From an uncultured Candidatus Saccharibacteria bacterium (GTDB lineage: Bacteria > Patescibacteriota > JABMPQ01 > JAQVVF01): DNA of 64,000 nucleotides. Shown in pieces: positions 3,468-50,835 of this stretch. The stretch's first letter is position 1. Every line of letters begins with the position of its first letter. The notes below the pieces were generated by a model that searched no databases, was not told the origin of the DNA, and saw only the letters and a program-made list of their open reading frames with translations. The stretch covers positions 58,149-122,148 of the forward strand of contig CAZNOH010000003.1 of NCBI GenBank assembly GCA_964574655.1, given 5' to 3'. Both the position numbers and the translations under genes were made by a program.

Positions 3468-3550
3468 GCAAATGAATTATGAATCAAGAATAATGAATTA
3501 TGAATCTTTTTCGACTTTACAAACTTTATAACTTTAAAAACTTTATAAAC

Positions 3551-4429: not shown

Positions 4430-4525
4430 AAACTAAAGATATCATAACAATATTAGATATTCAAGAAGCATATTTTTTACTTTTGCCTTGTAACTTTTTA
4501 CTTTTTCTTTTTTAATTTTGCCTTT

Positions 4526-6166: not shown

Positions 6167-6264
6167 ATCAAACTATTTTAATTAAAAATACTTATTTAGT
6201 CAACAAAAAAGACAGACTTTTCAAATCCATCTTTGACTTTATAAACTTTATAACTTTATGAACT

Positions 6265-9749: not shown

Positions 9750-9866
9750 ATTTTTATTTTAATAAATCAATAACTTAAATAAGTATAGCACAAAATATTT
9801 ATAGCTAAAAATATTTAGCATAAATTTATTATATCAAAAAAATCTACCTTTAAAAGTAGATCTCTT

Positions 9867-9941
9867 TGGTACCGCCACGGAGAATCGAACTCCGGTTGTC
9901 AGGATGAAAACCTGATGTCCTAGCCACTAGACGATGACGGC
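9867..9941 (-). tRNA. tRNA-Glu (anticodon UUC), CCA encoded
   Basis: Manual fold of reverse complement: acceptor GCCGTCA/TGGCGGT, D-arm GTCT..GGAC, anticodon stem TCAGG/CCTGA with loop TTTTCAT (anticodon TTC), T-arm CGGAG-TTCGATT-CTCCG, 3' ACCA. Confidence 0.8.
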
Positions 9942-11560: not shown

Positions 11561-11685
11561 CCAAGATACAAGAAACAAACAATAACCAATAACCAAACTC
11601 CAATAACCAAACTCGTCGCATTGTCCGTCGGTTTGGTTATTGGTTATTTTAATTTGAATATTGTTTGTTTCTTGTATCTTGGTTA
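11561..11685. repeat. Palindromic MITE-like repeat element, copy B
   Basis: Near-perfect inverted repeat with ~58-bp arms (ccaagatacaagaaacaaacaataaccaataaccaaac ... RC). Between the M23 gene and tsaD. May double as a terminator. Confidence 0.65.
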
Positions 11686-11700
11686 TTAGCAATTTATCAA

Positions 11701-12744
11701 ATGCTAATTCTCGGAATCGACACATCCTGTGATGACACTTCGGCCGCCATCGTAAAAGACGGTTCTTTTGTTTTATCAAATATTGTTTCTTCGCAAACAG
11801 AAATCCACAAAGAATTCGGCGGCGTTGTCCCAGAAGTTGCCGCCCGAAAACATATTGAATTAATAATTCCAGTCATCAAACAAGCAATTTCAGAAGCAAA
11901 AATAACAAAAGAACAATTAGATTTAATCGCCGTAACAAATGGTCCAGGCTTAATAACTTCTTTGATGGTTGGAATTGATACTGCGAAATCATTAGCCTAT
12001 TCTTTAAATAAAAAAATAATTGCCATTAATCATCTTGAAGGCCATATCTATGCAAATTGGCTTTATCCGCCTAATATCCGAATTTCCGAATTTCCGAATT
12101 TCCAGTTTCCCATTTTATGTTTAATAGTCAGCGGCGGTCACACAGAACTTGTTTTTATGCCTAACCATCTTAAATACAACGTCATTGGTCAAACCAGAGA
12201 TGATGCTAGCGGAGAAGCATTTGATAAAGTTGCCAAATTATTAAATATTGGCTATCCTGGCGGACCAATTGTTTCCAAATTAGCAAAATCAGGCAATGAC
12301 AAAGCCTACAATTTTCCACGTCCGATGATTAATTCAAAAGATTATGATTTCAGTTTTTCAGGACTCAAAACAGAAATTTTTAGGCTAACTCAGAAATATA
12401 AAAAATTTAACCAGCAACAAATCAATGATATCTGCTCTTCTTTTCAAAAAGCAGTTGTTGATACCTTAGTTTTCAAAACAATCAAAGCTGCAAAAGAATA
12501 CAAGATTAAAACAATTATGCTTGGAGGCGGAGTTTCCGCAAATAAACTATTGCGTCAAGAACTCAAAAACAAAATTGAAAAAGAAATTCCCAATTCTCAA
12601 TTCTCTCTTCTCAATTCTCAATTCACGTCTGACAATGGTGCGATGATCGCTGCTGCCGCTTATCAACATGCCATCGTAAGGAACAAAAATTTTTGTTCCT
12701 TACCGTACAAAAAAATAATTCCAGAAACAAATTTAAACCTATAA
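11701..12744 (+). CDS. tsaD: tRNA N6-adenosine threonylcarbamoyltransferase TsaD (Kae1/Gcp family)
   Basis: LGIDTSCDDTSAAIV N-terminus, HLEGHIYAN, SGGHTEL, GGGVSAN. Start moved to ATG 11701 outside the repeat element. Contains in-frame 8-mer x3 repeat at 12078-12103. Confidence 0.85.
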   Translation: MLILGIDTSCDDTSAAIVKDGSFVLSNIVSSQTEIHKEFGGVVPEVAARKHIELIIPVIKQAISEAKITKEQLDLIAVTNGPGLITSLMVGIDTAKSLAYSLNKKIIAINHLEGHIYANWLYPPNIRISEFPNFQFPILCLIVSGGHTELVFMPNHLKYNVIGQTRDDASGEAFDKVAKLLNIGYPGGPIVSKLAKSGNDKAYNFPRPMINSKDYDFSFSGLKTEIFRLTQKYKKFNQQQINDICSSFQKAVVDTLVFKTIKAAKEYKIKTIMLGGGVSANKLLRQELKNKIEKEIPNSQFSLLNSQFTSDNGAMIAAAAYQHAIVRNKNFCSLPYKKIIPETNLNL

Positions 12745-12790: not shown

Positions 12791-13318
12791 TTATTTCGTC
12801 ATGCTTCCCATACTTTGTTTTATAACAAATTCCGCTTTGCATTTTTTATGTTTTGCTTTTGTTGCTATTCCATTGTTAAGATAAAGCGCGCTATTTTTAA
12901 ATTTCAAAGTTGCTTTGCCTGGAGCTTTTGCCAAAAAAGTAACTGTAAATAACCTCCCTTTCTTTCCAGAAAATCCTGGATAAAAAATTACTCCAGTAAA
13001 TCGCATTTTGCCATTTACGATTTTATAGCCTTCCAAATTTCTCAGCCAATAAGTCAAAACATTTCTGTCTGGAGAAGTTCTTTTTACTTCCAGCAAATTC
13101 TTTGAAAAAATAATTTCTCCGTCTATCGCATTTATCGCCTTTTCCACATCAGCGCTATTTACAACATAATTTTTAACAAAAACTTCTACCGAAAATTCTT
13201 GCCCAACCAAAATATTAGCTTTTTTAGGCGAAAAACACAACTTTTTATTTGCTGCAAAACTATAAAAGGGCGCCAACAAAAAGCAGGCTGACAAACAAAA
13301 TATTATTATTTTTTTCAT
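12791..13318 (-). CDS. Secreted cohesin-like domain protein
   Basis: Signal peptide. Beta-sandwich-like segment resembling a cohesin module (ILVGQEFSVEVFVKN...INAIDGEIIF...LLEV...GKKGRLFTVTFLAKAPGKATLKF). Confidence 0.4.
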   Translation of the reverse strand: MKKIIIFCLSACFLLAPFYSFAANKKLCFSPKKANILVGQEFSVEVFVKNYVVNSADVEKAINAIDGEIIFSKNLLEVKRTSPDRNVLTYWLRNLEGYKIVNGKMRFTGVIFYPGFSGKKGRLFTVTFLAKAPGKATLKFKNSALYLNNGIATKAKHKKCKAEFVIKQSMGSMTK

Positions 13319-13319
13319 T

Positions 13320-14207
13320 TTATTTTAATGACTTTTTACGCGCAACCAAATAAAAACTAATTATTATTAATAATAACACAAAAAATATAATTATATAAAT
13401 CAGAGAATTATTTTCTTCTTTTATTTTATCGAAATTTACTTTTTCAATTCTTTCATTTCCAGCTTTGTCAATTACTTTCACTTGTATTTCTTGATTCAAT
13501 CTTTGATTTTTCAATACATAAGGGCTTTCTGTTATTACAAAACTGCTATCTCCTTCTTTTACTTCATAATGATCAATTCCAGAATTCTTGTCAGAAGTCG
13601 CAAAACTTAAAAAATATTTTCCATTAAACAATCCATCTTTTTTGCTCATTTCAGGCTTGAAAGATTCAGGCAAAATAGTATCGCTCTTAATATCCGTCTC
13701 AATTCCATTTGAAGTTCTGCTGATTAAAAAATCTAAATTAGAAAAAACAATATTTGCCAGCTCGCCATTCTCGTTATTTTTTGCAATTTGCGAATTATCT
13801 TCAAAAAAAATATTTGCTGTTCCATCTTTAATCGCTTCAAAAGTCAAACTGCCAAGCAAGCCATTTTTTCCTTCATAACCATTAGCAATAATTCCTGCCA
13901 AATTTATTTTAGTATCATTGCTTTGAGGCCTAACAATCCAAAAATTTATTAAAGAATTTCCATCGCTAAAATCTTTATATTTCAATGTTTCAGAAGAAAA
14001 ACCAACATTTAAATCAACAGCATTTATTGCTTCAAATCCTGTATCCAAAAAAACTTTAGCAGAAAAAAAATCTGTAATTCCAATTTCTTTTTTATCCAAT
14101 TCAAAATACAATCTTGCTGCCTTCACGCCATTGCCAAAAAACAAGCATAAAAACATGCTTATTAAAACTAATACGAAAAAAGATTTTTTTTTACTTTTTA
14201 CTTGCAA
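13320..14207 (-). CDS. Membrane-anchored cohesin-like domain protein (signal peptide, C-terminal TM anchor)
   Basis: FSAKVFLDTGFEAINAVDLNVGFS...LLGSLTFEAIKDGTANIFF cohesin-like segment. C-terminal hydrophobic helix followed by RKKSLK. Apparent TTG start overlaps a dispersed repeat motif. Confidence 0.4.
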   Translation of the reverse strand: MQVKSKKKSFFVLVLISMFLCLFFGNGVKAARLYFELDKKEIGITDFFSAKVFLDTGFEAINAVDLNVGFSSETLKYKDFSDGNSLINFWIVRPQSNDTKINLAGIIANGYEGKNGLLGSLTFEAIKDGTANIFFEDNSQIAKNNENGELANIVFSNLDFLISRTSNGIETDIKSDTILPESFKPEMSKKDGLFNGKYFLSFATSDKNSGIDHYEVKEGDSSFVITESPYVLKNQRLNQEIQVKVIDKAGNERIEKVNFDKIKEENNSLIYIIIFFVLLLIIISFYLVARKKSLK

Positions 14208-14241
14208 CTTTTTACTTTTTAATTTTTAATTTTGACTTTTC

Positions 14242-15156
14242 TTAGCCTGTCCAATAATACGCCATTACGCTCAAATCTCTAATGTCAATAATTCCGTCCT
14301 TTTTAAGTCTTTCATCAACATTCTTTTTTGCCAGATCAGTTAAACCGCGCCCCCACCAATAAGCCAAAATAGACATATCAACAATATTAACCTTGCAATC
14401 AGTATTCAAATCAGCTCTTCCCGGACAAGCCCTTTCTTTTTTCTTTTTAGAAACTTCTTTGACTTCAAAGTCCACTTTTGGCGACAAATCAGAAATACTT
14501 CCGCCATTGCCAACGCTTGCCCTTGCCTTGGCTCCATAATCACCATACTCCATTGAAGAAGTATCTAAATTATAAAGCCACAAACCACTATCATCAGCAA
14601 CCGTCAAGCCAGATGTTGGCGTATTCCAAATTGAATCAAAATACACTGAAACATTAACTAACGGCTTGCTCTTTCCAAAAACACTGACAATATCTCCTCT
14701 TGCCACCTCATCTTTATCAACATCAATTGTCGGCGACAAAAAGATACCGCTGATCTGCGTTGTCACGCCAGAAGTCACTGATATTGCAAAAGCTAACGAA
14801 TTTGTCCTTCTGCCGTCTATATCATCGCCATACAAAGTAAACATATAAACTCCAGCTGACAAGCCAGTTAAAGTAATTTCAAAATTAGCATCTGGTCCAG
14901 CTTGAGTGCTTGCCGAAATCGCCCCATCTTTCAAAAGCGTTACAAAGCTTGAAGGCGCTGCCATGCCTTTGAATACTACGCTTGTTTCTGCTGGCGGAGT
15001 AATCGGCAAAATTTCAATGCGAAAATTGGAAGTATCCGAAGCTCTGCATGGAACACGTAACATAGAACATAAAACAAACGACAAAATTGCCATTAGAAAA
15101 AATTTATTCCGCATGTTCCATATTATATGTTTCATGTTATGTATTATATATTTCAC
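14242..15156 (-). CDS. Secreted protein with C-terminal dockerin-like domain
   Basis: Two Ca-binding-loop-like repeats ADLNTDCKVNIVDMSILAYWWG and KKDGIIDIRDLSVMAYYW at the C-terminus. N-terminal beta-rich domain. True start may be an internal Met (MRNKFFLMAILSF). Confidence 0.5.
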   Translation of the reverse strand: MKYIIHNMKHIIWNMRNKFFLMAILSFVLCSMLRVPCRASDTSNFRIEILPITPPAETSVVFKGMAAPSSFVTLLKDGAISASTQAGPDANFEITLTGLSAGVYMFTLYGDDIDGRRTNSLAFAISVTSGVTTQISGIFLSPTIDVDKDEVARGDIVSVFGKSKPLVNVSVYFDSIWNTPTSGLTVADDSGLWLYNLDTSSMEYGDYGAKARASVGNGGSISDLSPKVDFEVKEVSKKKKERACPGRADLNTDCKVNIVDMSILAYWWGRGLTDLAKKNVDERLKKDGIIDIRDLSVMAYYWTG

Positions 15157-15158
15157 AC

Positions 15159-17588
15159 CTAATTCGCCACAACATCAACTGTCATAGTAATCGTATATGA
15201 TCCAACTGCTTGTTCCGCTGGAATCATCTGCGAAACAGCAACTCCAGTCAAATCCCAATAACAACTTGTGCCAGCAGTAGCACCTGCAATCAATAATGTC
15301 GCGCTATTTGTAGTCCCTTCAACAAAAGAAGTTGAGCCACCTAAAGTTATACCAGTATTAGTACAACCTACTTGTGGCGTGCTAGTCGCAACAGAAGCAT
15401 TCTGCGTCATTTGTCCACCATACAAATCAGCATCAACAACGCTATCCGCGCACCCACTACTCCCATTATCATTAAAATCAAAATTAGGCGATCCTGCTGA
15501 CCATAAAGCTGTTGTTACCGAAGCAGCCGCACTTAATGTCCAAAGAGAATTGCCAGTTCCATTATTCACTCTAATTCTTTGAGAATCTATCCCAAAAGTC
15601 CCCGTTGATGTCTGGCAAGCAAAATCAAGATTCTTTGAAGACATATTTACATTTGGACTAATAACTTCTGCTCCGCCAGAATCAACAATCAACACGCTCA
15701 ATGTTCCACTTAGTTTAGTTATTGTAATCTTGCTTGAATCTTCTGCATTGCTGTCAATTGAAGTATTCATATAACTAGTTGAACTAGTCGCCGAATCGCT
15801 TCCAGTTGTAATTAAATACATAAACCCCTCTGTCGCCCCAACCTTAATATTAACATTACCGCTAGCATGAGTATTAGTAATTCTAACATTATTCGTCGTA
15901 TCCCAAGCTGCAGAGCATGTTGTGGTCCCATTATCACTGCCCGCATCATAAAAACCGCAAGTGCCAAGTGTTGTTCCAGTCGAACCAGCCCATCCCGCTT
16001 TAACATTAACATGATCAACATAATCTGAAGCTGTCCGCATTTTCGCTGTTGTCCCGCCATTATTTTTTAATAAAGCATCCACTCGATACTGCGTTGAGGG
16101 ACTAATATCAGTACCGCTAGTGCAACTGATTGTATTTGCATTTGTATCTGTCAAAGTCCCCTCGCAAGCCAAAGTACCAGCGCCCCAAGTCAAACTAGCC
16201 GACTGATAAATTTTGAAATTAACCGCGCCTGTTATCCAAGTAAAATCCAGAGCTGAAATATCCGCTACTGTATTGCCAAAATCATCATCAGGTGTTGGCG
16301 CTGACCACATTGCATACATCCGCTCATTAGACGAAGCATTAATTGAAACACCCTGAAAATCACTTGTCGTCGAACTCAATATCGTATCTGCTGTCCAAGT
16401 TGAACCGCCATTATAAGAAACAGCTGAATAAACACTTCTAGTACCAACCACTGAAGGCGCTCTGGCATAAGAGACATAAAGATCAGCGCTATTGCTATCA
16501 ATACCGATTGAAACATCAAAAATAAAAGAGGCGGCATCAGTTGTGTCCGGCCACGGATCAGTCAATTGACTCCATGTAGAACTACTATATTTCCAGGCTC
16601 TAATCTCGCTCGTATTCGCTGTTCCTGGATTAACCACATAAGAAATATAAAGATCATTAGTTGCCAAATCTACTGTTCCAGAAATAGAGCCAGGATAAGT
16701 TATGCTATCCGCCGCGCTAATATCAATATCAGTAAAATCAGTTACCCAAGTATTCGTGGCATCAGTATAAATTTTATATTCAATATCATCAGTGGCAATA
16801 TCTCGATGCACTAACATCATATTTCCACTTGCCATTGGCAACAATAATACCTCGTGGTTGTCATTAGTATCATCTCCAACATTATCCCAAGGATTAGGTG
16901 TTTGCGTTCCTCCTGTCCACGAAGCCGCCAAAGTACAATCACTAGCGCTAGGACAACTTTCTACAAAATTTGCTGGCGCTGTTGGCGCTGTAATATCACA
17001 AGTTACAACATAAAGATCTCCATTTGTTCCTTTAGCGATATTAAGATCATTAGCAGTCGTAATTGACCCTTCCGCTCCGCCTGATACATCTCTCGCTGTA
17101 CTAGCCGTATCAGTAGCAGTATTAAAACGGCTATACCAAAGTCTATCTGTGCCTATCTCAAAGAAAACCAAATGAATATAAGTACCAGTCGTATCTCCTG
17201 GCGTCCAGCGATCATACCATGCTCCCACGCCAATAAAAGTTCCTGCTGCTGCCACGCCACTCGCTGCCGCCCAGCTTGTCCCGCTATTAGTTGACTTATT
17301 CCAAAAAACATCGTCCGCGTTAGTCGCGTCAATATAAAAAGAATAGCAAACCGTATCCGAAATACAGACAATTTGACTTGTTGACCTTTGATGAACAGCT
17401 GTTATTGCAACCGTATTATCAATTGTTACCTGCGCTGCCAAAGCCTCTGGAACTTCTTGGGGAATTAAAAAAGACTTGTTTTGTTCAGCTAAATCCTTAT
17501 AAAAATCTGGCGGATAACTAAAAAACCAGCTGGCTATCATCACGAAAATTAGTAAAAATCTAGTTGTCTTTTTAATAATTTTCATCAT
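15159..17588 (-). CDS. Large secreted Ser/Thr-rich BNR(Asp-box) repeat protein with C-terminal WxL-type domain
   Basis: Asp-box motifs (KSTNSGTSW, VSYNGGSTW). The C-terminal ~210 aa are homologous to the whole 20108..20821 protein, including W-T-L and W-D-L motifs (NSLWTLSAA ... SCYWDLTGVAVSQMIPAEQ). Confidence 0.55.
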   Translation of the reverse strand: MMKIIKKTTRFLLIFVMIASWFFSYPPDFYKDLAEQNKSFLIPQEVPEALAAQVTIDNTVAITAVHQRSTSQIVCISDTVCYSFYIDATNADDVFWNKSTNSGTSWAAASGVAAAGTFIGVGAWYDRWTPGDTTGTYIHLVFFEIGTDRLWYSRFNTATDTASTARDVSGGAEGSITTANDLNIAKGTNGDLYVVTCDITAPTAPANFVESCPSASDCTLAASWTGGTQTPNPWDNVGDDTNDNHEVLLLPMASGNMMLVHRDIATDDIEYKIYTDATNTWVTDFTDIDISAADSITYPGSISGTVDLATNDLYISYVVNPGTANTSEIRAWKYSSSTWSQLTDPWPDTTDAASFIFDVSIGIDSNSADLYVSYARAPSVVGTRSVYSAVSYNGGSTWTADTILSSTTSDFQGVSINASSNERMYAMWSAPTPDDDFGNTVADISALDFTWITGAVNFKIYQSASLTWGAGTLACEGTLTDTNANTISCTSGTDISPSTQYRVDALLKNNGGTTAKMRTASDYVDHVNVKAGWAGSTGTTLGTCGFYDAGSDNGTTTCSAAWDTTNNVRITNTHASGNVNIKVGATEGFMYLITTGSDSATSSTSYMNTSIDSNAEDSSKITITKLSGTLSVLIVDSGGAEVISPNVNMSSKNLDFACQTSTGTFGIDSQRIRVNNGTGNSLWTLSAAASVTTALWSAGSPNFDFNDNGSSGCADSVVDADLYGGQMTQNASVATSTPQVGCTNTGITLGGSTSFVEGTTNSATLLIAGATAGTSCYWDLTGVAVSQMIPAEQAVGSYTITMTVDVVAN

Positions 17589-17775
17589 TATTATGAACTC
17601 ATTGTAAGTTATTCTATATTTTGACTTAAATAAAAATATAATTCATCAAAACCTAGACATAAGCTTTACCAATATTCTCAAAACATCTTCTGCATTTTCT
17701 GCGTTAGCTTCTGCGTTATTCTGCGTTAAAGATTGATTAAAAATTGCTAGATTTTATTTAAGAATATGCCAAAAT

Positions 17776-18766
17776 TTAAAATAACTCGCTATTAGTTCTA
17801 TTAATAAAAAAATCTGAAACGCCTTTTGAAATTTCACGAATCACTTCTTTCTTGCCATCAGCAATATCACCTTCTACTGACACGCATAATAAATATCGAT
17901 ATTGCTTTAAATAAACTATGCCATAATCAGTTAGAATTTTCTCGCTTTCTGCTATTCCAATTTTATGCGCTATTTTAGTTCCAGAAGGAAGACCAGATAC
18001 AATCAAATCTTTGCCTTCAGAATCAACAAGAAATGAAAGAATTAAATTGGAATTTTCTTGATTAAGAAAAGAGGCATTATAAAGCGTCCGAAAAAATAAT
18101 CGCAAACTTCTTCAATGAAAGATGAGCTTCTTCTCCCTCTGGAGCAGAAAGAGTCAAATATTCAAAAGTATCTTTATATTCCTCAGCGCTAATATAGCGA
18201 AGTAAAATATTTCTAGCAGTATTATCAGAACGATTAAGCATTGCTTGCAACACCTCACGAAAATTAACAGTATCGCCTGCTTTCTTTTCCTTGCACCAAT
18301 TTCCATAACCGCAATCTAGATCTTCTTTCTTTATTATCGGCGTCTGATCTAAAGTATAAGCCTTTTCCTCCACTTTTTTCAAAAAAGCCATTGCCAAAGG
18401 AATTTTAAGCAAGCTAGCTGGATAAAATTCTTCTTTCTCGCGCAACCCCACCCATCCGCCTCTCCGGAAAGATTCAAAATAAACTCTTGTTGTAAATTGC
18501 GGGTATTTCTTTATTATATCTTCCAGAATTTTTTTCAAAGGATCAGAAGCAATCAACAAATCCTTATATCGGCCCGCATCAGGACTAAGCAATTCAAATT
18601 CAGAATTTATTCCTGATCCTGAATCTTGTTCCTTCTGCAAAAAACCTTGAGAAGTTTTAAAAAAATTCTGTTGGCCAATAAAAAAACCGCCTAAAAATAT
18701 AACAAAAAATCCCACTGCAACTAAAACAATAATTATTTTTTTATTTTTAATTAAGCTTAATTTCAT
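17776..18766 (-). pseudogene. Class A beta-lactamase-like serine hydrolase split by a frameshift (two overlapping ORFs 18077..18766 and 17776..18105)
   Basis: Upstream ORF has S-x-x-K (SLLK) and SDN (RSDNTARN) motifs. Downstream ORF in another frame has a KTG-like KIG motif in the expected context. The ORFs overlap by 29 nt. Confidence 0.5.
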
Positions 18767-18847
18767 ATTTTATTTCCAAAAACAGCTAAACAAAACTAAA
18801 ACAAAGAGATTCTACTCTTTGTAACAGCTTTAAAAATTATATCTTTT

Positions 18848-20098
18848 TTATTTTTCTTTGCTTTTTTCATCTTTTTTCTCCTTTGGCGGAACTTTTATTT
18901 TATCGCCTAAGCCTAAAACATAAGGCGCTTTCAATTTATTCACTCCTGCTAGAATTTTCCAAGACACATCAAATTTTTTCGCCAAATTTTTTATATCATC
19001 GCCTTGTTTAATCTCATAATCAATCCAAGATTTTGCAATCCATTTTTTCCTTTCTTGGTAAAACCAATACAAAAATCCCGCAAATAATATAAAAAACGCA
19101 ATCAAACCTTGGACGATCAAACCATTTGTTTTTGGCATCACAAAAAACCAGATTGCCGGTCTTTCTAATTTAGTCAGCTCTTTGCCGCTTTCTATACCAA
19201 CTGAAGCCTCCTTATTAGCATCGTAGGAAACTTCCAAAACAGCCTTGTACCAACCTCCCCAAAACGGCTTTTTTGCTTCAAAATTCCAATCTGATGTCTC
19301 GCCTCGCAAAACCGGATGCTGCCCGCCATTTTCTGTGATTGTTACTCCAAAAATGTTTTTTAATTTAGCCTTAATATCGGCATCTATTGACACATTGCCC
19401 AAATTTTTCACCAATGGATGCAAATTATAAACGTTTAGATTGTTCTTAACTGGCAATTTCTCAAACCCAGCAATTTCTAATTTTCTCACAATCTCTCCTG
19501 GAACTGTAATAGCCATTCTCATACCAGTCCGAACTAACAAATTTACTCCGCTTTGATTTTTTGGCGCTTCTTTTTTTTCCTGAACCATAATACAACCATT
19601 GCTTTCCCCAACAGGAGCATTTTTGGGCACATTTACGACAAAAGATACTGCTTCTGTTTTAGTTGGCTCCAATGTAACTTCCTTTTTTGCCAATTTAACC
19701 CAAGTTCCTACTTCTTTTTGTTGATCCAAAAATTGACTGCAAGCAAAACCACCGCCAGACGAATGCTCCGAATCAACAGCATAAACCAACAAAGTTTTTG
19801 TTTCTTTAGTATTATTAACTACTAAAACTGCATCGTCTTTTTTATCACCAAGATTAAGATTATATATAAAAATTGATTCTGTTCTGGGATTAGAAGAATC
19901 AGGATTTGCCGGCCGCCCACCGAAACCCCCATATTCAATTGCAAAAGATGGAAATGATATCAACAAGCCAAAAATCAAAAAAACAGCTATCCAAATCCAA
20001 GAACATCTGTTTTTACACCTCACAAAAAACAAGTTCTTTACAACTATAACAAATCGCCTCAACCATTTATTGGCGTTAACATTTTTCATATTATTCAA
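18848..20098 (-). CDS. Secreted/membrane protein with DUF916-like N-terminal domain (tentative), C-proximal TM helix and C-terminal LysM domain
   Basis: Signal-anchor, then segment resembling CscA/DUF916 proteins of WxL loci (GGFGGRPANPDSSNPRTESIFIYNLNLGDKK...VLVVNNTKETKTLLVYAVDS). TM helix. LysM (YEIKQGDDIKNLAKKFDVSWKILAGVN). Confidence 0.45.
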   Translation of the reverse strand: MNNMKNVNANKWLRRFVIVVKNLFFVRCKNRCSWIWIAVFLIFGLLISFPSFAIEYGGFGGRPANPDSSNPRTESIFIYNLNLGDKKDDAVLVVNNTKETKTLLVYAVDSEHSSGGGFACSQFLDQQKEVGTWVKLAKKEVTLEPTKTEAVSFVVNVPKNAPVGESNGCIMVQEKKEAPKNQSGVNLLVRTGMRMAITVPGEIVRKLEIAGFEKLPVKNNLNVYNLHPLVKNLGNVSIDADIKAKLKNIFGVTITENGGQHPVLRGETSDWNFEAKKPFWGGWYKAVLEVSYDANKEASVGIESGKELTKLERPAIWFFVMPKTNGLIVQGLIAFFILFAGFLYWFYQERKKWIAKSWIDYEIKQGDDIKNLAKKFDVSWKILAGVNKLKAPYVLGLGDKIKVPPKEKKDEKSKEK

Positions 20099-20107
20099 AA
20101 CTCAATA

Positions 20108-20821
20108 CTAACTAGCAGCAACCGTAATTACCATAGTCAAAGCATAATCAGCTACCGTAGGTTGCTCAGCAGGGATAGTCTGCGAAACAGTTGCACCTGT
20201 TAAATACCAATCACCAATATCATCAGACAAAGCAGCTGCATTCATTATTGTTACACTATTCGTCACACCTTCTGAAAGACCAGTGGAAGCACCTTTAGTA
20301 ATATTTGCTGTTGTACAAACTGCGCATTGGCCTTTAGTGATCGTACCTACACTTGCATCGATTGTCATTTGTCCCGCTTTAACGTCAACATCAGCTCCAT
20401 CTGTACAACCAGGCGTAGCACCAGTTGAATCATTAAAATCAAAATAATTCGGTCCAGTTCCTGTCCACAAAGCTGTTGTAGCTGATCCAGCAACTGATAA
20501 AGTCCAACCAGCATTGGCAGCACTAGGATTAGAAACATACAGCCTCTGAGTATTTGTTCCAAAAGTGCCAGTAGAAGCTGAAGCGCCAGACAAACAAGTC
20601 CAACTAAAAACTTTTGAACTCATAACAACAGAAGGGGCACCAACATCTACATAAGTGGCATCAACAATTGATGTTGATAAAGAACCAGCGCTTATCACTT
20701 GAGTAAAGCTTGAAGTATCAGTCAAAGCCGCCCATGCCACCAAAGAACTGCCACTTGTAAAAGCAATAGCTACAAAAATCACCAATAGAACATTAAATCT
20801 TCTAAAAAATTTTCCAGACAT
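20108..20821 (-). CDS. Secreted WxL-domain protein
   Basis: Signal peptide, two W-x-L motifs (AGWTLSVAG and IGDWYLTGATVSQTIPAEQ). Homologous to the C-terminus of the 809-aa BNR protein. Confidence 0.55.
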   Translation of the reverse strand: MSGKFFRRFNVLLVIFVAIAFTSGSSLVAWAALTDTSSFTQVISAGSLSTSIVDATYVDVGAPSVVMSSKVFSWTCLSGASASTGTFGTNTQRLYVSNPSAANAGWTLSVAGSATTALWTGTGPNYFDFNDSTGATPGCTDGADVDVKAGQMTIDASVGTITKGQCAVCTTANITKGASTGLSEGVTNSVTIMNAAALSDDIGDWYLTGATVSQTIPAEQPTVADYALTMVITVAAS

Positions 20822-21364: not shown

Positions 21365-21558
21365 TTCCTCCTCTTTCCTCTCAAAGAACTAACATTAAAA
21401 GGCATTCGATAAACAATTATAAACTTAAAAAAACATTTTGTCAAGTCAAATTCATCTTGTAAAAACTCTCTCCTATGTTAAAATATCAGCATATTAAAAA
21501 TTTTAAATCAGCGTAGATCAGCGTTAGAAATCAGCGTCAAATCAGCGCTTGTTATCAT

Positions 21559-24051
21559 ATGTTAAAAAAATACAACATTTTAGAACAGGAACAAAAATGG
21601 CAGAATTTTTGGGATCAAAACAATATTTACAAATATGATCCCTTTTCAAAAAAGCCAATTTTCTCAGTTGATACTCCTCCACCATACGCATCTGCCGCCC
21701 ATCTTCATGTTGGCCATGCCATGTCTTATACTCAAGCCGAATTCATCATCCGTTTCAAACGCATGCAAGGCTATAATGTTTTTTATCCAATGGGTTTTGA
21801 TGACAATGGCTTGCCAACTGAAAGATACGTTGAACAAAAATACAAAATTGCTGACAAAACCAAAATTTCCCGCGAAGAATTTATCAAATTATGTTTGCAA
21901 GAAACCAAAGAAGTTGCCAAAACTTATACTTCTCTTTGGAAATCATTAGGCCTTTCAGTTGATTGGTCATTGCTATATTCGACAATTAGTTCAATGTCTC
22001 GCCGTATTTCTCAAAAATCTTTTTTAGATTTATACAAAAAAGACTTGTTAGAACATCGCCAAGAACCAACAATCTGGTGTCCTTCCTGCCAAACAGCATT
22101 GGCCCAAGCTGATCTTGAAGATTCAGAAGAAAAATCCACACTAAATTATATAACGTTCAAACTTAAACACAGAAACACAGAAACACAGAAACATTCTGAC
22201 GCTCCGACGCTCCAAAGCTCCGAAGCTCTCATTGTTGCCACTTCCAGACCAGAATTACTACCAGCTTGTGTCGCCTTATATATCAATCCAGACGACAAAC
22301 GCTACCAAAGATTAATAAATCAAACTGCCATTGTTCCATTATTTAATTATGAAATCGAAATCAAATCTGACCCTTCTGTTGATCCAAAATTTGGCACTGG
22401 CTTAATGATGGTTTGTACTTGGGGCGATTCTGAAGATGTTGCCAAATGGAAAAAAGATCAACTTTCAACCAGACTGATCTTTGATAAATCAGGACACTTA
22501 AATGAAAAAGCAAAACCTTATCAAGGCTTAGCTATTAAAATCGCTCGTATTAAAATTTTAGAAGATTTAAAAAATAAAAATTTATTAATTAAGCAAGAAG
22601 ACATTACTCATGTTTTAAACATCCACGAACGCTGCAAAACTCCAGTTGAATTTTATTTAACAAAACAATGGTTTATTAAAATTCTTGATAATATAGAAGA
22701 TTTCAAAAAACAAGGAGACAAAATAAACTGGTATCCGGTATCAATGAAAAAGAAATATGATACTTGGCTAGATGGATTAAAATGGGATTGGAATATTTCA
22801 AGAGAAAGATATTATGGCGTTCCGTTTCCAGTTTGGTATTGTAGCAAATGTCATGAAACAATTTTGCCAGATGAAAAAGATCTGCCAGTTGATCCAATCG
22901 AAAATGAACCAAAAAATCCTTGCCCAAAATGCCAATCAAATAAATTTATTCCAGAAAAAGATGTCATGGATACTTGGATGACATCATCTTTAACACCTCA
23001 AATCAATTCGCATTGGCAAGAACAAGATGAAAACAAAAAACTTTATCCAATGTCTTTGCGTATTCAAGCTTTTGAAATTATCAGAACTTGGCTTTTTTAT
23101 ACAGTTGTAAAATCTTGGTATCATAAAAAATCTTTACCATGGCAGGATGTCATGATTTCAGGACACGGACTAGACGAACAAGGACGCAAGATTTCCAAAT
23201 CATTAGGAAATTATGAACCAGTTAATAACATCATAAAGCGTTATGGTTCTGATGCACTTAGATATTGGTCTGCAGGATCAAATCTTGGCAATAATTTAAG
23301 ATATAAGGAAGAAGAAGTTAAAGACGGCAAAAAATTAATTACCAAACTTTTCAACGCCAGCAAATTCGGCTTGATGTTCTTAAATAAGAATTCAGAATTG
23401 AGAATTGAGAATAGAGAATTTTCACCTATCGACATTTGGATTTTATCAAAACTACAAGATACAATTAAAAAAGTTACGCAATATTTCAATGATTACGAAT
23501 ACTCGAAAGCAAAGAAGGAAGTCTACAATTTCTTTTGGAAAAATTTTGCTGATAACTATATTGAGCTTGCCAAATCAAGACTCTATAATGATGAAAATAA
23601 GGAAGCTAAACAATCAGCTCAAGCAACACTTTATATTTGCTTAATAAATATTTTAAAAATGTTTGCACCAATCCTTCCACATATTACTGAAGAAATCTGG
23701 CAAGCGATAAAACAATTAAACAATGAAACAAAAAAACAATTTAACAATTTAACAATTGAACAATCAATCCACATCAGTTCTTGGCCAAAACAAGAAAACA
23801 AATTTATCAACAAAAAAATGGAATTACTTGGTGATTCTATTGTAGAAATTTTAAGTTTAGTTCGAAAAACAAAATCAAATGCCAATCTGGCAATGAATAA
23901 AGATATTAAAGAAATAATTATTGACTCTAAAGAAAAAGATTTAGAAAAATTCTTTCCAGATCTAGCCTCAGCCACTCATGCAGAGCAAATTTCTTTCGGA
24001 ACTGGTGATCAAAATATTGATGATAATCTGAAAATAAAAATTATTTTATAA
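21559..24051 (+). CDS. valS: Valyl-tRNA synthetase (class I aaRS)
   Basis: PPPYASAAHLHVGHA (HIGH-type), RFKRMQGYNV, VDPKFGTG, WCPSCQTAL, DWNISRERYYGVPFPVWYC, KISKSLGN (KMSKS). Best match to the ValRS pattern but IleRS/LeuRS not fully excluded. Carries two in-frame tandem-repeat insertions. Confidence 0.7.
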   Translation: MLKKYNILEQEQKWQNFWDQNNIYKYDPFSKKPIFSVDTPPPYASAAHLHVGHAMSYTQAEFIIRFKRMQGYNVFYPMGFDDNGLPTERYVEQKYKIADKTKISREEFIKLCLQETKEVAKTYTSLWKSLGLSVDWSLLYSTISSMSRRISQKSFLDLYKKDLLEHRQEPTIWCPSCQTALAQADLEDSEEKSTLNYITFKLKHRNTETQKHSDAPTLQSSEALIVATSRPELLPACVALYINPDDKRYQRLINQTAIVPLFNYEIEIKSDPSVDPKFGTGLMMVCTWGDSEDVAKWKKDQLSTRLIFDKSGHLNEKAKPYQGLAIKIARIKILEDLKNKNLLIKQEDITHVLNIHERCKTPVEFYLTKQWFIKILDNIEDFKKQGDKINWYPVSMKKKYDTWLDGLKWDWNISRERYYGVPFPVWYCSKCHETILPDEKDLPVDPIENEPKNPCPKCQSNKFIPEKDVMDTWMTSSLTPQINSHWQEQDENKKLYPMSLRIQAFEIIRTWLFYTVVKSWYHKKSLPWQDVMISGHGLDEQGRKISKSLGNYEPVNNIIKRYGSDALRYWSAGSNLGNNLRYKEEEVKDGKKLITKLFNASKFGLMFLNKNSELRIENREFSPIDIWILSKLQDTIKKVTQYFNDYEYSKAKKEVYNFFWKNFADNYIELAKSRLYNDENKEAKQSAQATLYICLINILKMFAPILPHITEEIWQAIKQLNNETKKQFNNLTIEQSIHISSWPKQENKFINKKMELLGDSIVEILSLVRKTKSNANLAMNKDIKEIIIDSKEKDLEKFFPDLASATHAEQISFGTGDQNIDDNLKIKIIL

Positions 24052-27177: not shown

Positions 27178-28455
27178 TTATTTCTTTATCTTTTTTATTA
27201 TTCTTTCTACTGCCAACGCATCCGCTCCCATCCTCAAATCAACCTTATATTTCTCACTCATCTTCCAAACATCGGCAAAAGATTTTTTCATTGTCTTTTC
27301 TAGCTTTTTATTTACATCAACAAGACTCCAATATTTTCCATCCATATTTTGTAACCATTCAAAATAAGAAACGGTCACGCCTCCAGCATTTGCCAAAATA
27401 TCAGGAATTACCACTTTTTTCTTTTTAAACAAAATTCTGTCAGCATCAGGAGTTGTTGGACCATTTGCCATTTCCAAAATAATATTAGCTTTTATTCTAT
27501 TGGCGTTATCTTTCGTAATTTGATTTTCAATAGCTGCTGGCACTAGAACATCAACATCTAATTCTAACAATTCCGCATTTGTAATCTTCTGTGTATCAAC
27601 TAGACCACTAACACTACCTGTCTTCTCTTTTTGTTTCATTACCTTCTCAAGATCAATACCATCTTTTTTATACACTCCACTTCTTGAATCAGAAACCGCG
27701 ACAACAACGAACCTTTTGTCTTTAGAAATAATTTCCGCAATATTATATCCTACATTTCCAACACCTTGCACTGCAACAGTTATTTTTTCATTTGCTTTAA
27801 TCTTTTTCAACGCCTCGTTTAATGTAAAATATCCGCCTAAAGCAGTTGCTTCCGTTCTCCCCAAAGATCCGCCCTTAGATATTGGCTTTCCAGTAAAAGT
27901 TGGTAGCCACTCATTATCAGCGATTTTTGAATTTTTACTTGTAGCTTTTACCTTTTTACTTTTAACTTTTAACTTTTTAAATTCATCGCTCATCCATGCC
28001 ATTATTTCCGGAGTTGTATTTACATCAGGTGCTGGAATATCCTTATTTGGTCCGATACAATCAAAAATTGCCTTAACATAACCTCTTGATAAATTTTCCA
28101 ATTCTTTTTTTGATAATTTTTTTGGATCAACAATTACTCCGCCTTTTCCACCGCCCAAAGGAATGTTTGCAACTGCGCATTTCATTGCCATCCAAAAAGA
28201 CAAAGCTTTTACTTCAAAATCAGAAACTTCCTGATGAAATCTAATACCGCCTTTATACGGGCCTCTTGCAGAATTATATTGCATTCTAAATCCTTGAAAC
28301 ATCCTAATCTTTCCATCATCCATTTTCACTGGGAAATTAACATAAACTGCTCTTTCTGGTTTTGATAAAATTTCCAAATAGGTTTTATCCAACTTCATCA
28401 AATCAGCTACTCTCCCAAGCTGAACTAATGCATTCTCAAAAACATTTTCAGACAT
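27178..28455 (-). CDS. gdhA: NAD(P)-specific glutamate dehydrogenase
   Basis: KGGIRFH, GGGKGG, GVGNVG Rossmann motif. Contains an in-frame insertion (KKLKVKSKKVKATSKNSKIADNE) encoded by a copy of the dispersed TTTTTACTTTT-type motif. Confidence 0.9.
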   Translation of the reverse strand: MSENVFENALVQLGRVADLMKLDKTYLEILSKPERAVYVNFPVKMDDGKIRMFQGFRMQYNSARGPYKGGIRFHQEVSDFEVKALSFWMAMKCAVANIPLGGGKGGVIVDPKKLSKKELENLSRGYVKAIFDCIGPNKDIPAPDVNTTPEIMAWMSDEFKKLKVKSKKVKATSKNSKIADNEWLPTFTGKPISKGGSLGRTEATALGGYFTLNEALKKIKANEKITVAVQGVGNVGYNIAEIISKDKRFVVVAVSDSRSGVYKKDGIDLEKVMKQKEKTGSVSGLVDTQKITNAELLELDVDVLVPAAIENQITKDNANRIKANIILEMANGPTTPDADRILFKKKKVVIPDILANAGGVTVSYFEWLQNMDGKYWSLVDVNKKLEKTMKKSFADVWKMSEKYKVDLRMGADALAVERIIKKIKK

Positions 28456-28528
28456 ATTGCTTTAGTTAATTAGTTAATTAGTTAATTAGTTTATTAGTAA
28501 TTAGGTAACAATGGAACAATTTAACAAT

Positions 28529-28723
28529 TTATTTCTTGTTGATCTCATCAATTATAGCCTGGATCTTTTTTTCATCAAGTCCATGTGCTAAAGAACCCTG
28601 TTCGATTGTTTCTCCATGAGCCATCAAACAACCAACGCAATGCATTCCATGCTTAACTAAAATATCAACCGTTTCTGGTTTTTCTTCAACTGCCTTGCTG
28701 ATTAAAGTATCTTTTGTAATCAT
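28529..28723 (-). CDS. DUF1858-type small redox-disulfide protein (hybrid-cluster-protein-associated domain)
   Basis: 64 aa with MHCVGC motif in the DUF1858 context (KHGMHCVGCLMAHGETIEQG). Confidence 0.55.
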   Translation of the reverse strand: MITKDTLISKAVEEKPETVDILVKHGMHCVGCLMAHGETIEQGSLAHGLDEKKIQAIIDEINKK

Positions 28724-30469: not shown

Positions 30470-32857
30470 TTATACTGATTCACAAAGTGCATTTAAACCT
30501 CTTACTAAATCAACATAGCGTGCATATTCTTTAATTGCCCTATACTGGCTCTCTCCATCCAATCCTGCTTCTTTCAAAACCATTGCTGCCTGCCCACTGC
30601 CCAAATAATGCCCCTTTTTAAAAGGATGCAAGGTAACCAATCTACCCGATATTGACATTATCCATCTATCCATTGTTGGCTTTGTAAACCCAGTAACACC
30701 CATTGCAAAAGAAGCAACTCTTTCTGGAAAAATCTGTTCCTGAACTTCCAAATCAAGCCTGGCAAAAAGTTCTGCTGAAGCAACATAATAAACATTCGGA
30801 TCAATACCATCTGCCAAAAGCCTTGGCAAAGTGTCAACCACAAAAGCATATGTCACTCCGCTTTCCTGCAAAATGATATTAACATCTGGCTTATTATTTG
30901 TTGCCTTCCGCAATAAATAAACGCCATTAATTGACTCTTCAAATCCTGACAATCCAAGTGCTTTTCGATCCAGCACTTTCTTTGGCGGACGAGTTACAAA
31001 GATTGCAATAATTGCCGGCCAAAGCGATAAAGCTTTTGCCAGCAATGGCCAAATTTCCTGAGGCTCCCAAGGAGTCAAGGTGATCATCGTATCACCAGGG
31101 AAATTCTCTTGCAACAATTGCAAGGCCTGAACATCAGCATGAGTTGGACCATCTTCTCCGGTTTCCAATCCAGCATGTCCACAAACCAAAATAAAAGGAT
31201 TATATGACTGACCTGTTACTACCTTTTTCGCCTGCTGACCAATTGCATGCAACCTTGCTGCAATATGTCCAAGCGGTGCCATAAAAGCAGCATATGACCC
31301 GCCAACACCAATATGATGGCCATTGGCTGACAGTCCTGCTAGAATTGCAGACATTGCATCTTCACAAATCCCACCTGTCGAAAGCTTCCTTGAATCAGGA
31401 TTCCTTTCAGCATGGAAAAATCCATCAGGAAATCCATTTCCAATATTTCCAACACTGACTGAATCCAAGAGATCAGCAGCTGCACAAAGAATTGCTCCAT
31501 AACTTCCTCTATTCAGGAAGTTCAAAGCATCCCCTAAAACACCTCGCAAAGTTACATCATTGCCCGGCGTCAAAATCAAAGATTCTGGAGTATCGCCTTC
31601 TAACAAATCAATTGCTCCGTAGACATTACCAATTTCTGGAGCAAAAATTTTCTTTTCTCTACCATCTTCATTCAAACACGTCTGCGCAATTACCAAATCA
31701 TTCGACAATCTTTTTATTATTTCATAATTACTAATTTCCATCGCCGAACGAATACTTAACAATGCTTGTGCATAACACACTTCAATCCTTTCCTGATCAC
31801 TACCACTTTGGCACAAATTTTCACCAAAGCAGTTTGGCAAAGAAATAACACCTAATTCACGAAGCTCTTCTGTCGCTTCATAAAATCCCGAAGTGCAAAG
31901 CTTGTGGCCTGCACCATGAGATTTTTTGCCAGTAATTCCATATTTGTAACCTTTTTCAGTTCGATAGACAATCATTGTCGGTTGACCATTCTCCCTGTCT
32001 CCCAAAATAGCAAAAGCAGCATTAACTTGTGTAAAGCTCATGCCATCAGGTACATAGATTACGTTCCAATCATGAAGCTGTCCTAACTCCATTGGAGTCC
32101 ATTGGACATAATCGCCAAATTGATCATCTTCTGCACAAACTCGATCCGAATCAATTGATGACTGATTCCAATCAACATGCAAAACAATATTGCTAAGACC
32201 CATTGCTGACGCAGCTGCCATAGCTTCAGAAACACGACCAGGAGTAAGTCCTCCCTCGCCTTCCAAAATATGGACTTTTGGTGCTTTTTCTTTTCCATAG
32301 TAATCGATTCTACCCAAAGCCAAACCAACAGCTGTAGCCAATCCCACTCCCGAAGCACCAGTCGCAATCCTTACAAACGGTGTTGCTGGCGTTGAATGTC
32401 CATCAAGCGCTCTTGCCCTGTATTGCTTAAACAATGGCAAATCAGTTTCAGGATTTCGCCTGAATCCCAACAAATCTTCTAATCGCAATCTGTCCTTCAT
32501 ATCCTCTGGCAATAAATGACTTGCCCCAATTCGAACAACCTCATCCATCAAAGCTAAGGCTGTATAGAGTCCCAAAGCCTTATGACCTGCAGCTTCTACC
32601 CAAACATCAGCATCTTCTCGATTTGGATTTGAAATATCAAAATACAAACCATGATACAACAGATAATTACGAATTACGCCAGAAGAAATTGATCCTCCAG
32701 GATGACCCGAAGTTGGCACAAAGTTGTACAAAATTGCACACAAGCTTCTATACAACTTGAACAGAAATTCCAGATCAGAAAAAGTTGAAGGACCTAAGAG
32801 CTGTCCGTTTTTCACTAGCTTTCCAACATCATGATAACTGCTTCTTCGCTGACTCAT
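30470..32857 (-). CDS. tkt: Transketolase-family thiamine-diphosphate enzyme (long form)
   Basis: GHPGGSISSG, AAGHKALGLYTALAL, EGEGGLTPGRVSEA, GEDGPTHADVQALQ. Strong GGAGGG RBS and higher GC than neighbours. Confidence 0.65.
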   Translation of the reverse strand: MSQRRSSYHDVGKLVKNGQLLGPSTFSDLEFLFKLYRSLCAILYNFVPTSGHPGGSISSGVIRNYLLYHGLYFDISNPNREDADVWVEAAGHKALGLYTALALMDEVVRIGASHLLPEDMKDRLRLEDLLGFRRNPETDLPLFKQYRARALDGHSTPATPFVRIATGASGVGLATAVGLALGRIDYYGKEKAPKVHILEGEGGLTPGRVSEAMAAASAMGLSNIVLHVDWNQSSIDSDRVCAEDDQFGDYVQWTPMELGQLHDWNVIYVPDGMSFTQVNAAFAILGDRENGQPTMIVYRTEKGYKYGITGKKSHGAGHKLCTSGFYEATEELRELGVISLPNCFGENLCQSGSDQERIEVCYAQALLSIRSAMEISNYEIIKRLSNDLVIAQTCLNEDGREKKIFAPEIGNVYGAIDLLEGDTPESLILTPGNDVTLRGVLGDALNFLNRGSYGAILCAAADLLDSVSVGNIGNGFPDGFFHAERNPDSRKLSTGGICEDAMSAILAGLSANGHHIGVGGSYAAFMAPLGHIAARLHAIGQQAKKVVTGQSYNPFILVCGHAGLETGEDGPTHADVQALQLLQENFPGDTMITLTPWEPQEIWPLLAKALSLWPAIIAIFVTRPPKKVLDRKALGLSGFEESINGVYLLRKATNNKPDVNIILQESGVTYAFVVDTLPRLLADGIDPNVYYVASAELFARLDLEVQEQIFPERVASFAMGVTGFTKPTMDRWIMSISGRLVTLHPFKKGHYLGSGQAAMVLKEAGLDGESQYRAIKEYARYVDLVRGLNALCESV

Positions 32858-32899
32858 CTGTCTTCCCTCCTTTTTTGTGGGGATCTAATCAATAAATTT

Positions 32900-34201: not shown

Positions 34202-34395
34202 CTCTCCCCTCCCTTTTTGTCTCGGGTTTTTTAAACCCTTGGCTGCTTCGTCTCTTTTAGATACCACAAATTTTAAAAGAACCTGCCTAATCATACATCA
34301 TTAGATTCTAATATATTACACCATCATAAGTCAATTAATCTGTGGATTATTCTCAAAAATCTTGCTATCATAAATTTAGTTTTAATAATGTAGCA

Positions 34396-34425: not shown

Positions 34426-34448
34426 TAATTTTGTTGTTTAGTTATTTA

Positions 34449-34480
34449 TCACCCCGCAGGGTGATCACCCTGCGGGGTGA
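34449..34480. promoter_or_regulatory. Perfect 32-bp palindrome TCACCCCGCAGGGTGATCACCCTGCGGGGTGA in a divergent promoter region
   Basis: Two 16-bp half sites with no spacer, between the aminotransferase start (34201, minus) and the uppP start (34500, plus). Confidence 0.5.
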
Positions 34481-34499
34481 TAATTTAGTTATTAATTTA

Positions 34500-36075: not shown

Positions 36076-36135
36076 AAATTTTTATTTTTTACTTGCAACT
36101 TTTTACTTTTTAATTTTGACTTTTAATTTTTTCAA

Positions 36136-42116: not shown

Positions 42117-42225
42117 TTACAAATCAAAAAAATCTTGTTATATTATCACATTAAGATTTCAGTAATTTTTTTTAATTTTTACTTGGAACTTTTTACTTTT
42201 TAATTTTTACTTTTACCTTTTAATA

Positions 42226-49428: not shown

Positions 49429-50835
<1,407 letters not shown>

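Follow-up and report, generated by a model that had tools for sequence, protein, structure and literature searches.

Tandem arrays of 7- and 8-nucleotide units in valS and elsewhere in a Patescibacteria genome are probably slippage-type repeats filtered by selection within genes

The stretch of DNA examined here, referred to as the window at its full length of 64,000 nucleotides (nt), comes from a Patescibacteria genome and has a GC content of 33%. Among its genes is valS, whose open reading frame (ORF) hosts four tandem arrays built from units of 7 or 8 nt. Comparable arrays are present in tsaD, in a gene for glutamate dehydrogenase (GDH), in a gene for an O-antigen ligase-like protein of the Wzy_C family, and in intergenic DNA (Table 1).

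The identity of valS is supported by several lines of evidence. Its product matches the Pfam families tRNA-synt_1 and Anticodon_1 (PF00133, PF08264), its top relative of solved structure is the valine--tRNA ligase (ValRS) of T. thermophilus (1GAX, E=4e-92), and its homologs in Patescibacteria carry the name valine--tRNA ligase. The TSRPE motif aligns with T(T/V)RPE, both in the alignment of homologs and in the comparison with 1GAX. The protein thus has the class Ia catalytic core, the editing-domain motif and the anticodon-binding domain that are expected of this enzyme. The leader of the gene (21504-21549) holds four AATCAGCG copies spaced 10-12 nt apart, which fill the interval from a promoter-like TTGTAA...TAAAAT to the start codon. 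In relatives, sequence that contains ATCGAT takes the place of these copies, and a TTCTGCGTTA x4 array at 17687-17728 resembles the array of the leader.

The first two arrays of valS were brought to attention by an inspection of the letters alone (the sequence-only reading), which described two immediately adjacent three-copy 8-mer repeats that insert residues before TSRPE. Both arrays are present, and the peptide that they encode was read correctly as KHRNTETQKHSDAPTLQSSEAL, followed by IVATSRPE. However, their start had been placed one base early: CACAGAAA x3 occupies 22168-22191, inside a perfect 8-periodic run at 22165-22193. The arrays are also separated by a 4-nt spacer (TTCT, 22194-22197), and the second, which is GC-rich, has four units; Tandem Repeats Finder (TRF) delimits it as 22201-22228 with 85% matches. 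The proposed AGAATTG-type array encoding NSELRIENREF was located at 23387-23420. A tsaD array said to follow the same pattern of three 8-nt units does exist, but it has 3.9 copies and a net gain of 21 nt in place of 3 x 8. Two further arrays, valS array 4 (23710-23764) and tsaD array 2 (12585-12624), had been overlooked.

Table 1. Positions of valS, tsaD, the tandem arrays and the recurrent repeat families (window coordinates, except for the last row)
Feature	Position	Strand	Description
valS	21559..24051	+	ORF for valine--tRNA ligase, 830 aa; hosts four arrays
valS array 1	22165..22193	+	AAACACAG x3.6, perfect, 29 nt; encodes KHRNTETQKH; TRF 100% matches
valS array 2	22198..22229	+	four units, GACGCTCC, GACGCTCC, AAAGCTCC, GAAGCTCT; encodes (S)DAPTLQSSEAL
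valS array 3	23387..23420	+	AGAATTG x4.9; encodes NSELRIENREF; TRF
valS array 4	23710..23764	+	AAACAATT x6.9; encodes KQLNNETKKQFNNLTIEQ; TRF score 68
tsaD	11665-12744		two arrays; Pfam TsaD
tsaD array 1	12073..12103	+	AATTTCCG x3.9; encodes IRISEFPNF
tsaD array 2	12585..12624	+	AATTCTC x5.7, the reverse complement of the valS AGAATTG unit
Four consecutive 7-mer arrays	49563..49685	-	CAATTTC x4.7, ATTTGTT x3, TTTGGAA x3.6, TTGTATC x3.3; inside Wzy_C (O-antigen ligase-like) gene
Fifth array of the same Wzy_C gene	50178..50208	-	ATTCGGA x4.4, perfect; encodes NSEFRIPNSES
GDH heptamer array	27925..27979	-	TTTTWAC on + strand; Lys-rich insert of ~14 residues
Intergenic compound arrays (example)	28462..28531		TTAGTTAA x6, then TAACAATT x3.2
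TTTTTAC element copies	4474-4528, 14188-14240, 27925-27979, 36079-36132, 42169-42222, 46083-46108, 49402-49451		
ACTTTATA(A) arrays	3514-3551, 6236-6272, 55018-55047		one unit family, three separate sites
AGAATTG sites	12584-12625 (-), 23387-23421 (+), 42966-42993 (-), 60068-60081 (+)		
L012 heptamer arrays	9794-9881, 14682-14714, 19956-20029, 20161-20214		positions in locus L012

Arrays with these two unit sizes are far more numerous in the window than expected by chance. When perfect arrays were defined as exact tandem runs of at least three copies and at least 18 nt, six were found, every one with a period of 7 or 8, compared to a total of about 0.1 in the 50 dinucleotide shuffles that served as the control. 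These perfect arrays have 3.4-4.7 copies and end in partial units. With mismatches allowed, TRF reports 12 arrays for each of periods 7 and 8, versus 1.5 and 1.3, respectively, in local shuffles; there is no excess at period 6 (1 versus 0.9 shuffled) or period 9 (0 versus 0.7). Periods 7 and 8 account for 24 of the 34 arrays with at least 2.8 copies, and the autocorrelation of intergenic DNA peaks at lags of 7, 8, 14-16 and 21. On the strength of the shuffles, the period-7/8 excess and the intergenic autocorrelation, the suggestion of the sequence-only reading that a genome-wide process and not chance is responsible can be upheld. The same arrays are present in the NCBI, JGI, Logan and ENA assemblies, and they are shorter than one sequencing read.

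A census at a looser threshold yields 37 arrays with 7- or 8-nt periods, of which 22 fall in non-coding DNA (6.75 kb in total) and 15 in coding DNA (57.2 kb), corresponding to densities of 3.26 and 0.26 per kb, or a 12-fold difference. Many arrays are positioned just upstream of start codons or at gene ends. Three genes hold 11 of the 15 in-gene arrays (five in the Wzy_C gene, four in valS and two in tsaD), and non-triplet arrays outnumber triplet arrays within genes by 15 to about 3. The in-gene units are diverse, with a recurrent fixed unit evident only in a separate TTTTTAC family of 6-7 copies. The units of valS arrays 1 and 2 have no other occurrence within the 64-kb window, and the array sequences of valS, tsaD and the Wzy_C gene, taken with their flanks, likewise have no second copy there; array units instead resemble flanking or ancestral sequence. 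With head-to-tail units free of spacers, an excess over composition, and unit lengths in the range of 5-11 nt with heptamers prominent, the arrays have three characteristics of long simple sequence repeats (SSRs). The only known RNA family from Rfam in the window is tRNA-Glu, and the arrays match none. Among the ten largest unannotated ORFs of the window, none was recognised as a replication or repair gene to which the bias could be traced.

To define the phylogenetic range of the excess, the identical census was run on 88 valS-centred loci (labelled L001, L002 and so on, with WIN denoting the window itself). The excess at periods 7 and 8 recurs in the close relatives L001 and L081-L084, which have 81-94% DNA identity, and in L085, whose ValRS is 68% identical. 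Densities range from 1.8 to 7.5 arrays per 10 kb in WIN (3.1), L001 and L081-L084, and L085 is also in excess. Approximately 70 other valS loci have essentially no such arrays. These include archaeal and bacterial loci with 27-33% GC, and therefore low GC alone does not explain the excess. Two genomes of more distant candidate phyla, L012 and L002, exhibit an excess in the form of fixed-unit heptamers. In L012, a single heptamer (GGTAAGT / ACTTACC) is arranged around valS in both orientations and in up to 12.6 copies. These arrays look like a fixed-unit system of the short tandemly repeated repetitive (STRR) type, unlike the diverse units of the window.

All four valS arrays coincide with gaps in an alignment of 17 ValRS sequences. 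For arrays 1 and 2, the segment from a conserved F to the (I/L)ATS/TRPE motif measures 24 residues, compared with 9-10 residues in L001 and more distant relatives, and the extra residues are unmatched in 1GAX. The insertion before TSRPE, put by the sequence-only reading at about 16 residues, amounts to 14-17 residues and is lineage-specific relative to distant ValRS proteins and 1GAX. Array 3 encodes an inter-helix loop that precedes the anticodon-binding domain. Similarly, the GDH array is an insert relative to the P. furiosus enzyme (1GTM), and the 8-mer array of tsaD adds seven codons relative to four orthologs. An AlphaFold2 model of the ValRS (mean pLDDT, or predicted local distance difference test score, of 73.8; built from a shallow alignment and used as support only) places residues 204-222 in a coil between two strands, 608-622 in a coil between two helices, and 722-736 in a coil after a helix, with pLDDT values below 50 at residues 206-220 and 723-732. 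The in-gene arrays sit in variable, tolerant surface loops. In ValRS, they lengthen the loop of an editing-domain beta-hairpin just before TSRPE, the inter-helix loop of array 3, and a further loop inside the anticodon-binding domain.

Evidence of selection is found in the reading frames. The array-bearing ORFs are intact in every genome examined (valS, tsaD and GDH orthologs), and where their lengths differ, they do so by multiples of three only. To examine stop codons, each in-gene array was swapped for a perfect version of itself and then translated. Where the unit is free of stops in every frame, the natural array is perfect or nearly so (29/29, 33/33, 25/25, 31/31 and 30/31 matching bases). 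The AGAATTG array of valS has exactly two mismatches, AGAATTC and AGAATAG, and these fall at the two of its four junctions where TTGA would otherwise create an in-frame TGA; the two out-of-frame junctions are intact. Because the ORFs keep their frame and the TGA codons are avoided, frame preservation acts as a filter on outcomes, and it is best explained as selection imposed on a frame-blind process. Stop-free units as such are not significantly enriched in genes, at 9 of 15 compared to a rough estimate of 55-60% of random units.

A more specific rule, in which in-gene arrays would add 3 x 8 nt or total lengths divisible by three, was not borne out. Net differences from array-free orthologs are 21 nt in tsaD and, in valS, 27 nt at array 4 and 42 nt over the first two arrays together, none of which is a multiple of 24. 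Only 3 of the 15 in-gene arrays, as delimited by TRF within the window, have a total length that is a multiple of three, although this quantity is uninformative because array ends include partial or seed units. Copy numbers range from 3.0 to 6.9 in genes and from 2.8 to 8.7 outside (p=0.61), and the in-gene values show no clustering near 1+3 or 1+6. A frame-preserving step of exactly three units is seen cleanly once, in the second array-bearing loop of valS, where L083 equals L001 plus exactly 21 nt (3 x 7); it does not constitute a general rule.

The history of the arrays was examined in a codon-level alignment of valS from five genomes (WIN, L001, L081, L083 and L084). The total length of arrays 1 and 2 is identical in WIN, L081, L083 and L084, relatives at 84-87% identity, whereas L001 has 42 nt fewer, despite its 92-94% DNA identity to L081 and L083. 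This shortfall is a derived loss, and the insert is ancestral at about the level of the genus and not new in the window. An ancestral insert in related ValRS sequences had been named by the sequence-only reading as a finding that would refute its proposal, and half of this holds. The change in loop 1 of L001 relative to its relative is a compound deletion and insertion, with 52 nt in one corresponding to 10 nt in the other.

Sequence turnover differs among the arrays. Array 2 has undergone only scattered point changes between genomes. In array 1, the units are AAACACAG x3 in WIN, AAACACTC, AAACACTG and AAACACCG in L084, and AAACAAGA, AAACAATA and AAACAATA in L081. Whatever the ancestor, one change must have been made in three or four units of a lineage, which amounts to concerted evolution with length unchanged. 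In loop 2, the unit is AGAATTG in WIN, CAAAATT in L001 and L083, CAGCTAT in L081, and a 9-mer in L084, where the 21-nt step noted above is the sole clean whole-unit step. L084 has array 4 in common with WIN, whereas L001, L081 and L083 are 27 nt shorter at this array. The second tsaD array is 7-periodic in WIN, and distant orthologs have equal length with no periodicity. Finally, the GDH gene of L001 contains a perfect TCAAAAA x4.9 array (34 nt) at a site that is non-repetitive in L081 and L083, for a net gain of 9 nt, and this array dates to after the split of L001 from those two relatives. As judged from these alignments, arrays have been gained, replaced or lost between relatives whose DNA is 92-94% identical, and they have stayed active on an evolutionary timescale. 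The approximately 30 indels among relatives at 92-95% identity are too few to reveal peaks at 7, 8, 21 or 24 nt; L081 and L082 are identical over 6 kb. A search of metagenome contigs for strain variants with a degenerate pattern of the flanks returned one unrelated match, and the ValRS cluster that includes the window has a single member.

Several repeat families recur in the window. A dispersed element of approximately 54 nt, composed of TTTTTAC heptamers and an irregular CTTGYAAC unit, is present in seven copies, and its 21-nt core pattern has 6 matches versus 0.02 expected. Its T-rich strand is on the + strand in all copies, regardless of the orientation of the neighbouring gene. One copy forms the Lys-rich insert of the GDH gene, another provides the Wzy_C gene with its stop codon and its product with the final residues, and two adjoin start codons. 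Three - strand genes have an array of ACTTTATA(A), with units of 8-9 nt, at the 3' end or immediately beyond it. Arrays of AGAATTG are found in both orientations and occupy three or four sites that are unrelated to each other (13 matches versus 2.6 expected). TsaD, valS and the Wzy_C gene also share units with TCCGAA, which encode similar peptides (NSEF/LRI).

Other features of the window and of related loci were also recorded. Small GC-rich hairpin inserts include the perfect GTTGGGGGTCTGTCT-C-AGACAGACCCCCAAC, which lies in loop 1 of valS in L085 (~3050-3085 in L085). The sequence ATCACCCCGCAGGGTG x2.1 is found at 34448-34481 of the window, upstream of or at the start of a BacA gene, and in L084, CCACCCGAAGGGTGG is part of an insert of 10 codons in the 3' region of valS, close to the C-terminus of the protein. 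The window encodes two Wzy_C (O-antigen ligase-like) paralogs (49429-50835 and 53375-54895) in a polysaccharide-synthesis neighbourhood with PMT_2 and Polysacc_synt genes, and the first carries five heptamer arrays in its loops. Two blocks of genes are missing from L001 and L081, which are otherwise syntenic with the window. The first (12791-20821, ~8 kb, between tsaD and valS) has seven ORFs, including those for an 808-aa protein without a Pfam match and a LysM/WxL-interacting protein, and the second (30470-34294, ~3.8 kb, between DHH and BacA) has a transketolase-like gene and an aminotransferase gene. A strong and uniform GC skew is evident throughout the window (C 13167 versus G 8206; -0.23 on the + strand), with values of -0.13 in + strand genes and -0.29 in - strand genes. 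The skew is -0.21 to -0.33 in L001, L081, L083, L084 and L085 and much weaker in distant loci. It was considered as a correlate of the arrays and set aside, given that L012 has heptamer arrays without skew.

We favour the interpretation, to which we assign a probability of roughly two in three, that the arrays are slippage repeats of the SSR type with an optimum at units of 7-8 nt, and that they are filtered by selection where they fall in genes. Tandem duplication of the slippage type during DNA synthesis is the most likely origin, although our confidence in any particular enzymology is low. By this account, strand slippage would produce local tandem duplications with a sharp, lineage-specific optimum of unit size. 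The process would be blind to the reading frame and active everywhere, and therefore most arrays are intergenic. Within genes, only that subset survives in which length has changed, on balance, by a multiple of three, no in-frame stop is created, and the site is a tolerant surface loop. Homogenisation without a change of length could proceed by paired in-frame gain and loss of three units, by several slips within one replication event, or by correction of mismatches in transiently misaligned units. No function need be assumed for the repeats themselves; their effect is the making and remodelling of short protein loops, including those of essential proteins.

A number of observations weigh against this interpretation. 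The net differences of the 8-mer arrays (21, 27 and 42 nt) include no multiples of 24, and the 34-nt perfect array in the GDH gene of L001 represents a gain of only 9 nt. With net lengths that depart from unit multiples, the arrays must often overwrite sequence and not simply add to it. Furthermore, periodicity or homogenisation arose at constant length in tsaD array 2 and in arrays 1 and 4 of valS. Such length-neutral periodicity is not predicted by one-step slippage and would call for compound events, for repeated gain and loss of three units (+3/-3), or for conversion of one unit by another. Indels of one unit (7 or 8 nt) are few at 92-95% DNA identity, even when intergenic arrays are included. 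The presence of AGAATTG at three sites in both orientations, and of TCCGAA units in tsaD, valS and the Wzy_C gene, is not predicted by a purely local, sequence-blind process. Finally, the interpretation offers no reason for the optimum at 7-8 nt.

Some of these same observations would be accommodated if a distinct repair or synthesis process were to write each array in one event, replacing the sequence under repair, in place of stepwise slippage. Break repair in which 7-8 nt are filled in repeatedly from a template, or 'stuttering' of a polymerase at pause sites, would be examples, and we regard any such process as rather unlikely. It would account for the birth or homogenisation of arrays at little net change (+9 nt in the L001 GDH gene, and 0 in tsaD array 2 and valS array 1), for the compound deletion and insertion at loop 1 of L001 valS (52 nt versus 10 nt), and for the sharp size optimum with perfect arrays of 3.4-4.7 copies and partial end units. 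However, no candidate enzyme is evident among the ten largest unannotated ORFs of the window, and sequential in-frame events or conversion between misaligned units account for the same observations, in which approximately five events can be dated. It is similarly doubtful that a dedicated or very unusual behaviour of DNA synthesis or repair in this clade, distinct from microsatellite slippage, overwrites sequence in place and so continually remodels loops of ValRS, TsaD and GDH. Such behaviour might be tied to the extreme strand asymmetry of the clade, and single-event overwriting, if true, would represent a lineage-specific engine of protein-loop innovation.

An origin of the in-gene arrays from small mobile or dispersed elements that inserted in frame, in the manner of Rickettsia palindromic elements (RPEs) or the small dispersed repeats of cyanobacteria, is improbable. 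The seven copies of the ~54-nt TTTTTAC...CTTGYAAC element, including those in GDH and at the end of the Wzy_C gene, speak for such a proposal, as do the three AGAATTG sites and the perfect GC-rich hairpin in the same valS loop of L085. However, most arrays have distinct units, and the orthologous loops of close relatives differ in unit and resemble their local flanks. For valS arrays 1 and 2, whose units have no further copies in the window, an origin from a dispersed element was ruled out.

We consider it more improbable still that the arrays are contingency loci that confer phase variation through copy number, or that the repeats were selected as binding sites or RNA signals. The five arrays in the Wzy_C surface-polysaccharide gene belong to a gene class in which contingency loci would fit, and many arrays lie near starts or gene ends. 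However, valS, tsaD and GDH are housekeeping genes with arrays in mid-gene, which do not fit. Moreover, frames are intact in every ortholog examined, with length differences in multiples of three only, and arrays are stable between relatives at 92-95% identity. The units are also too diverse for a single binding factor, and they match no Rfam family. Lastly, although the genome is AT-rich (33% GC) and A/T runs account for some of the weak TRF rows, chance low complexity or an assembly artefact is scarcely credible given the near absence of perfect arrays from shuffles (with ~1.4 TRF arrays per period), the array-free state of equally AT-rich controls, the GC-rich composition of array 2, and the recurrence in independent assemblies of arrays shorter than a read.

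These arrays demonstrate that a mutational bias can outweigh the usual persistence of triplet repeats alone, such that arrays of 7- and 8-nt units outnumber triplet arrays in coding sequence. They are one of the main reasons why orthologs of essential proteins differ in length in an uncultured lineage with reduced genomes. They also provide a natural experiment on the birth of protein loops, in which dated array births, homogenisation in place and the avoidance of stop codons are visible. Their properties bear on the preference for heptamers and octamers, a question that dates back to a survey of long SSRs in 2007. More practically, the arrays inflate apparent divergence and introduce gaps into alignments of marker genes for Patescibacteria phylogeny, and they could serve as strain markers.

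Among known systems, RPEs are dispersed palindromic sequences of ~100-150 bp that share a common sequence and are inserted in frame in genes. The valS arrays resemble them in providing lineage-specific extra peptide to a conserved protein from repetitive DNA at tolerant surface sites, but they are unique in the window, non-palindromic and locally derived. The phase-variable contingency loci of Haemophilus, Neisseria and Helicobacter are likewise simple repeats within genes that mutate by strand slippage. In contrast to those loci, the arrays described herein have no out-of-frame alleles among those found, reside in mid-gene loops of housekeeping genes, and are stable over 5-8% DNA divergence. 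The tandem repeats of Borgs (PMC9879509) share with our arrays a fast and independent origin, partial flanking units, restriction to particular genomes, and the creation of new, probably disordered segments. However, every Borg repeat unit in an ORF is divisible by three and yields amino-acid repeats (PMC9879509), whereas here the units are 7-8 nt long, all three frames are read in turn, and the frame is kept by net length.

The closest parallels are found among tandem heptamers and long SSRs. The cyanobacterial STRR sequences, the GGGNATC repeats of Xanthomonas and Nostoc, and the TAACTGA repeats of Beggiatoaceae (PMC4692102, PMC4679880) are also abundant, have a sporadic phylogenetic distribution, vary in length and sequence between close relatives, and often lie beside start codons. 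In each of those genomes, one or a few fixed units recur, nearly always in intergenic DNA, whereas the units here are diverse and several arrays are translated in essential genes. As the survey of Mrazek, Guo and Shah (2007) is summarised in PMC4679880 and PMC4692102, heptamers are the commonest class of long SSR in most genomes, a preference for which a link to the length of DNA held by the polymerase was proposed; according to PMC4679880, units that are multiples of three were likeliest within coding regions. Measured against those summaries, our arrays agree with long SSRs (units of 5-11 nt) in having short head-to-tail units, a genome-specific excess that peaks at 7 nt, a mostly intergenic location, and slippage as the proposed origin. 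They differ in that 8-mers are as common as 7-mers, non-triplet arrays dominate in genes, and arrays are translated within essential proteins, and in that the host belongs to a Patescibacteria lineage with reduced genomes and not to the large-genome groups of the survey as summarised. No paper on 7- or 8-nt arrays in Patescibacteria genes was found in the literature searched. With these likenesses and differences in mind, we conclude that the repeats are an unusual form of a known repeat class, and not a new system.

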